This document shows positions 21,715-22,101 of a stretch of 64,000 bases of DNA, in pieces; position 1 is the stretch's first letter; each line of letters begins with the position of its first letter. The stretch is taken from assembly GCF_009931435.1 (NCBI RefSeq), contig NZ_CP043414.1, one strand, 5' to 3'. The notes below the pieces were generated by a model. The model searched no databases. It worked only from the letters and a program-made list of their open reading frames with translations, and was not told the DNA's origin. The DNA is from Escherichia coli. Its GTDB lineage: Bacteria > Pseudomonadota > Gammaproteobacteria > Enterobacterales > Enterobacteriaceae. The position numbers and the translations under genes were made by a program.

Positions 21715-22101
21715 TTAACGATACTTCTGGTGATAGGCGTTGCGGGTCGTTTTCAGTTGCTCTGCGGCAGCCTGCGCTTCTTTTACTTTACCTTCATTAG
21801 CCAGCTTCAGCGCGTCGTCTATCTGACCGACCAGAATGTCGAAACCGTGGCGGAAGTCTTTCATCTCCGGGCTGTCTGGCGATTTGCCTTCGAGCTTCGG
21901 CGGCGTTGCTTTTTGCGCATCCAGCGCCGCTGCGCGCATTTTGGTTAACGCGTCTTTGACTTGCGCCGCGTTATCGGCTTTTTCGACCACTTTTAAATTG
22001 TCGTTGAGGGTTTCCATATTGTCTTCAAGATCAGCGGCAAACGACGCCGAACTGAATACCAACGAGGAGACTGCAAGAATAGCTAACAGGCTTTTGCGCA
22101 T
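21715..22101 (-). CDS. cybC: Soluble cytochrome b562 (intact, with signal peptide)
   Basis: 128 aa, [37 protein letters not shown]... Confidence 0.95.

Follow-up and report, generated by a model that had tools for sequence, protein, structure and literature searches.

We are highly confident that the gene at positions 21715..22101 (minus strand) of the 64,000-nucleotide stretch of DNA analysed here, hereafter the window, is a normal intact cybC, that its intact state excludes K-12 and names no lineage, and that the window comes from a deep-branching Escherichia lineage. Few small haem proteins are better known than cytochrome b562, the product of cybC, which serves as a model in folding studies and from which the BRIL fusion partner was derived. 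The observation as such is ordinary, was known before, and brings no new mechanism or family.

The cybC gene and its product

By every sequence-level test cybC is intact. The list of open reading frames gives an ATG start and 128 amino acids followed by a stop codon, with neither a frameshift nor an internal stop. The Pfam profile PF07361 (Cytochrom_B562) covers the product end to end (model positions 1-102 of 102, E = 5.8e-34), the match scoring 117.2 bits as against a cut-off of 30. Likewise, PDB chain 9tmp_A (128 aa) aligns with residues 1-128 (E = 1.4e-76), and the mature 106-aa chain of 1apc, 256b and 1qpu aligns with residues 23-128 (E = 2.7e-63). Given that the mature PDB chains start at residue 23, the boundary of the signal peptide falls after residue 22, yielding a precursor of 22 signal-peptide residues and 106 mature residues. 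The reading frame, the profile and the structural matches thus uphold the claim of the earlier note that cybC here encodes the full 128-aa precursor with its signal peptide.

The product is identical to WP_001232246.1, which is found in the same form in 2013C-4282, MFDS1022581, DA33137 and Z0117EC0005. Residues 1-22, consisting of an MRK start, a hydrophobic core and a terminal SFA, are identical to the signal peptide of E. coli B REL606; the mature chain begins with ADLEDN (ADLEDNM...) and ends in ...NAYHQKYR. The axial haem ligands established from PDB 256B, Met7 and His102 in mature numbering, are present in the translation as M29 and H124 of the precursor. Compared with the REL606 protein (WP_001232240.1; PDB 256B/1QPU), also of 128 aa, the window protein is identical at 126 of 128 positions and differs only by the conservative I39V and D72G (I17V and D50G in the mature chain), while the genes differ by 17 nucleotides. 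The signal peptide, Met7/His102 and the position of the gene between pmbA and nrdG are common to both.

Identity at 104 of the 106 mature residues with the solved 256b/1apc chains argues for a four-helix-bundle fold. Cleavage of the cytochrome b562 signal peptide is established knowledge. Going by what is established for this protein, the precursor would be exported by means of its 22-residue Sec signal peptide to give a soluble periplasmic cytochrome b562, the 106-residue bundle of which would bind one haem b non-covalently via Met7 and His102; on the same grounds cybC would be expected to be expressed in the strain that carries the window. The gene occupies its conserved place in the chromosome, in the order pmbA-cybC-nrdG. 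The features that surround and make up the locus are collected in Table 1.

Table 1. Features of the cybC locus and its flanks, in window coordinates
Feature	Position	Strand	Basis
nrdG, convergent downstream neighbour of cybC	20820..21284	+	ORF list; synteny; start set by 465-nt annotated length
relBE cassette remnant, insert of ~430 bp	21280..21706		blastn vs MG1655
orphan RelB/DinJ-family antitoxin gene, 79 aa	21285..21524	-	PF04221, E = 8.6e-16
terminator-like hairpin, TTGGGCGGTGAAACGTTACCGCCCAA then CGCTTTCTTA	21682..21707	-	consensus scan; putative function
mature cytochrome b562, 106 residues	21718..22035	-	translation; comparison with REL606
signal peptide, Sec-type, codons 1-22	22036..22101	-	solved mature chains start at residue 23
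Shine-Dalgarno-like AAGGAAG, ~8 nt 5' of the cybC ATG	22108..22114	-	read from sequence; putative function
imperfect-palindrome repeat, ~140 bp, ERIC/IRU-like, between pmbA and cybC	22117..22259		alignment A1
pmbA (tldE), upstream neighbour of cybC on the same strand	22285..23637	-	ORF list; synteny with annotated genomes

The K-12 deletion and cybC as a marker

The MG1655 copy of cybC (b4236 in NC_000913.3) is annotated as a 368-bp 'pseudogene' (4459488..4459855). When the window is aligned with a K-12 derivative and with MFDS1022581 (alignment A1), K-12 proves to lack 26 bp, GTGAGCAATGCGCAAAAGCCTGTTAG, that are present in the window at 22083-22108 (minus strand). The deletion takes 7 nt of the leader, the ATG, codons 2-6 and one further nucleotide, and so removes both the initiator and the positively charged MRK with which the signal peptide begins. 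The K-12 pseudogene has its locus, its neighbours and the upstream ERIC-like element in common with the window, and its remaining 368 nt are collinear and in frame, whereas the remnant differs from the window protein by G72D, A122S and Q125K and is 94.6% identical at the nucleotide level. The deletion starts a few bases past the edge of the upstream palindromic repeat. Annotation differs by record, as in RefSeq K-12 derivatives PGAP calls a 121-aa, ATT-started 'cytochrome b562' CDS and no pseudogene.

Reports of the K-12 defect go back to 1993. The MG1655 gene has been described as a 'pseudogene ... of unknown function' (PMC3349551), and in the passage of PMC13041623 that cites Trower (1993), cybC is given as reported to be unexpressed in K strains. 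Alignment with MG1655 and with E. coli B finds the gene deleted in K-12 and intact in REL606, where it is a 387-nt cybC with the canonical product. The statement in the earlier note that the MG1655 copy is a truncated pseudogene is therefore borne out, both by the annotation of b4236 and by the 26-bp deletion, and K-12, lacking these 26 bp, carries no identical intact cybC.

How much does an intact cybC tell about the strain that carries it? Of 5426 complete E. coli genomes, all but one (5425) carry cybC at a coverage of at least 80%. The K-12 junction, searched with a 201-nt query spanning the deletion and matched at 99% or more, occurs in 354 of these 5425, and the best 60 of the 354 junction carriers are all K-12 laboratory strains or derivatives (MG1655, C600, DH5alpha, DH1, J53, NCM3722, RR1, HST04 and evolved lines). 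As a positive marker of K-12 laboratory strains the 26-bp deletion is clean, and the proposal that an intact cybC points to a non-K-12 genome stands. The K-12 junction is missing from about 93% of complete genomes (~5071), whose cybC counts as intact as judged by presence, coverage and annotation, and the O157:H7, O145, O111 and ETEC entries of the 5426-genome census have cybC intact. Given that the intact gene is found in about 93% of genomes, REL606 included, it says 'not K-12' and names no lineage. Nor is the CybC allele lineage-specific, as WP_001232246.1 is also found in DA33137, which is only 96.2% identical locally. Intact cybC is thus the default state and a weak marker that excludes one laboratory lineage and identifies none; of its proposed value as a marker of strain background, the exclusion of K-12 remains and the identification of a lineage does not.

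The flanks of cybC: an orphan relB and a palindromic repeat

On the downstream side, the insert that carries the relBE cassette remnant stands in place of the ~40-bp cybC-nrdG spacer of K-12 and B, which measures 44 bp in E. coli B. The RelB match extends over profile positions 1-75 of the 82 of PF04221. Relative to DA33137, relE has been lost from the window by a clean 283-bp deletion between CATCCAG direct repeats (alignment A2), and no cognate relE is found next to the window relB. Since relE is absent, the gene represents an orphan antitoxin and not a toxin-antitoxin system. The relBE cassette of DA33137 (WP_000212715.1 / WP_001105433.1) matches the window in insertion site, in relB and in promoter-side sequence, at about 97.7%. 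DA33137 however keeps relE, whereas the deletion in the window joins the 3' end of relB to the former relE stop codon, resulting in the 79-aa antitoxin. The annotation of DA33137 and of Z0117EC0005 agrees with this reading of the relB gene.

The relB cassette occurs in 455 of 5426 genomes and a relE gene is matched in 394, taking these matches to lie at the cybC-nrdG locus; the orphan-relB state is found in about 61 genomes (~1%). The orphan relB antitoxin adjoining cybC is the most discriminating local feature. A window-specific 35-mer across the nrdG/relB junction has no exact match in the GTDB species-representative genomes, so that the source is not one of these or its representative deviates there. 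The reading frame of the orphan relB is intact after the loss of relE in several lineages that are 95-98% identical to one another, and may be retained under selection, a reading that we regard as unlikely. The orphan RelB might in that case counter addiction to relBE elements that enter the cell, for instance, or act as a DNA-binding regulator.

The terminator-like hairpin downstream of cybC lies within the relB-cassette insert; it starts 8 nt past the cybC stop codon and has a T-rich tail. The relB cassette thus supplies the hairpin that would now terminate cybC.

On the upstream side, the palindromic repeat between pmbA and cybC has an RNA fold of -77 kcal/mol (z = -8), and genomes carry a median of 3 copies of it, dispersed and about 70-77% identical. 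It is found in approximately 3885 of 5425 genomes (~72%), K-12 and REL606 among them, while alignments find it missing from the nearest relatives of the window, 2013C-4282 and MFDS1022581. ERIC/IRU elements are imperfect palindromes of about 127 bp, intergenic and dispersed in enterobacterial genomes. Compared with the ERIC core of the ERIC1R/ERIC2 primers, the repeat gives a weak score of 28, as against 17 +/- 3 for shuffled sequences (maximum 30). Because this score is marginal, we name the repeat ERIC-like, which is what it looks like, and do not file it as ERIC.

A question arises, whether an open reading frame that is intact may nevertheless be silent, the ~140-bp repeat cutting cybC off from its promoter and turning it into a regulatory pseudogene. 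A strict sigma-70 consensus scan of 21200-22400 detects no promoter, and a very stable hairpin lies directly 5' of the ribosome-binding site, as such a reading would predict. The scan, however, is a crude consensus match in which 1.1 promoters would be expected by chance, and the repeat is as widespread as described above. Moreover, the pmbA-cybC spacer of REL606 is equally long, 182 bp, with the palindromic repeat included, yet B strains express cybC strongly, REL606 more highly than MG1655 (PMC3446290), and they yield native b562 protein (PMC13041623). We therefore consider a silenced cybC very unlikely. With cybC read as a normal gene, it may be read through from pmbA or be transcribed from inside the repeat element.

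An Rfam scan of 20700-22500 (E <= 1) returned nothing at cybC, at relB or at the repeat. Its sole match, at 20703-20739 in the nrdD-nrdG spacer, is naRNA4/REP-like and sub-threshold (41 bits as against a gathering cut-off of 59.5), and is probably a REP element.

Lineage of the window and its other differences from K-12

Comparison of the window with MG1655 4418000-4510000 by blastn yields six collinear blocks of 94.3-97.9% identity, 95.41% overall. The window is 96.04% identical to REL606, whereas REL606 and MG1655 are 97.79% identical over the corresponding region. Among complete genomes the best match is 2013C-4282, at 98.79% over 45.8 kb, itself 95.52% identical to MG1655 and listed among complete cryptic clade I genomes (PMC10100065). 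No complete genome reaches 99% or more over window positions 34000-53300, the best being 98.7%. Locally, identities of 98-99% unite the window with MFDS1022581, 2013C-4282 and Z0117EC0005 in one group, each member of which reaches about 95.5-96.3% with K-12 and B. Given this divergence from MG1655 and 98.8% identity to a clade I genome, the split is far deeper than a comparison with B, W and pathotype genomes would address.

An exact match to part of the window is found in a draft assembly, as window positions 31190-38969 are 100% identical over 7780 nt to contig PTRH01000008.1 of GCA_002965045.1. By extension the match would hold for the whole window, and this draft, or a clone of it, is probably where the window comes from. 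The exact TamB protein of the window is also encoded there, and an identical TamB is present on about 24 contigs of public assemblies. GCA_002965045 and PTRH01 are absent from the supplements of the clade I paper (PMC10100065), and in the literature searched no paper describes the assembly. These identities place the window in a deep-branching Escherichia lineage, about 4.6% from K-12 and closest to cryptic clade I; the assignment to clade I would be one by nearest neighbour, drawn from a 64-kb region.

The clade I genome 2013C-4282 and the window have in common the orphan state of relB, the CybC protein, the absence of chpSB and an identity to MG1655 of ~95.5%. The two still diverge by 1.2%. 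No ERIC-like element precedes cybC in 2013C-4282, and this strain has a DUF2569 gene (segment 28877-29486) that separates fbp from yjfF; the window (26985-27037) and K-12 are without that gene.

Could the window nonetheless derive from K-12, or from a hybrid with it, with cybC restored by recombination? In favour of this, the window and K-12 have the ERIC-like element 5' of cybC in common. Yet identity to MG1655 stays at 94.3-97.9% in all collinear blocks, cybC shows 94.6% identity to K-12-type alleles, and part of the window matches a non-K-12 draft assembly at 100%. The block identities and the draft match refute this origin, and we give it virtually no credence.

Several differences from K-12 accompany the intact cybC. 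The chpSB toxin-antitoxin pair is gone from between ppa and ytfP, where the window has 144 bp (32540-32684) as against 651 bp in MG1655. It is carried by 3100 of 5426 complete genomes and is absent from the other 2326 (43%), as well as from REL606 and 2013C-4282. Between ytfA and yjfZ, an 8-kb segment (53392-61370) that is absent from K-12 holds a six-gene metabolic cluster, encoding a short-chain dehydrogenase (SDR), a xylose-isomerase-like TIM barrel, an enoyl-CoA hydratase, a CoA transferase, an FAD-binding oxidoreductase and an MFS transporter. This island is complete in 1660 of 5426 genomes (31%) and at least partial in 3178 (59%); the weakest match spans no more than the initial 158 bp of the island and hits a TetR/AcrR regulator gene. 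The MG1655 ytfA pseudogene at the island edge could be a remnant of the TetR/AcrR regulator.

Two further observations concern the same comparison. The ridA-mgtA spacer contains an insert (10323-10887) of about 560 bp extra relative to K-12, which encodes a 153-aa protein (10381-10842, plus strand) that resembles a helix-turn-helix in its N-terminal region and has hydrophobic segments towards the C-terminus; PGAP labels its homologue in 2013C-4282 'transposase'. In the yjgL region (4696-4855), about 160 bp are covered twice by the blastn blocks against MG1655, as would be expected if yjgL had an internal repeat or were polymorphic in length.

Do these differences and the intact cybC mark one strain background, so that the gene would be specific to one lineage and vary together with the island and the absence of chpSB? 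All three states do differ from MG1655 in the window. Their frequencies, however, are far apart. A non-K-12 start of cybC is found in about 93% of genomes, as against 43% for the absence of chpSB and 31-59% for the island, hence the traits do not travel together; the relB cassette is rarer still. Furthermore, REL606 combines an intact cybC with the absence of chpSB and of the relB insert, and the CybC allele recurs in DA33137 despite the local divergence of that genome. A co-varying marker is therefore highly improbable. The absence of chpSB and the accessory island that the earlier note had listed against K-12 are both confirmed by blastn. Its argument that such differences reflect a different lineage is right to the extent that identity to MG1655 is no higher than 95.4%; the traits themselves are independent polymorphisms of unequal frequency.

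Taken as an intact and ordinary gene, cybC has a practical use as a check of strain background, and its biological weight is very small. Lineage typing is better served by the ~4.6% divergence from K-12, by the orphan relB cassette and by the exact match to GCA_002965045.1, and the window is better read as clade I-like Escherichia than as a typical E. coli pathotype. Regarding the gene itself, an intact cybC is the ancestral and near-universal state in E. coli, to which K-12 is the exception.
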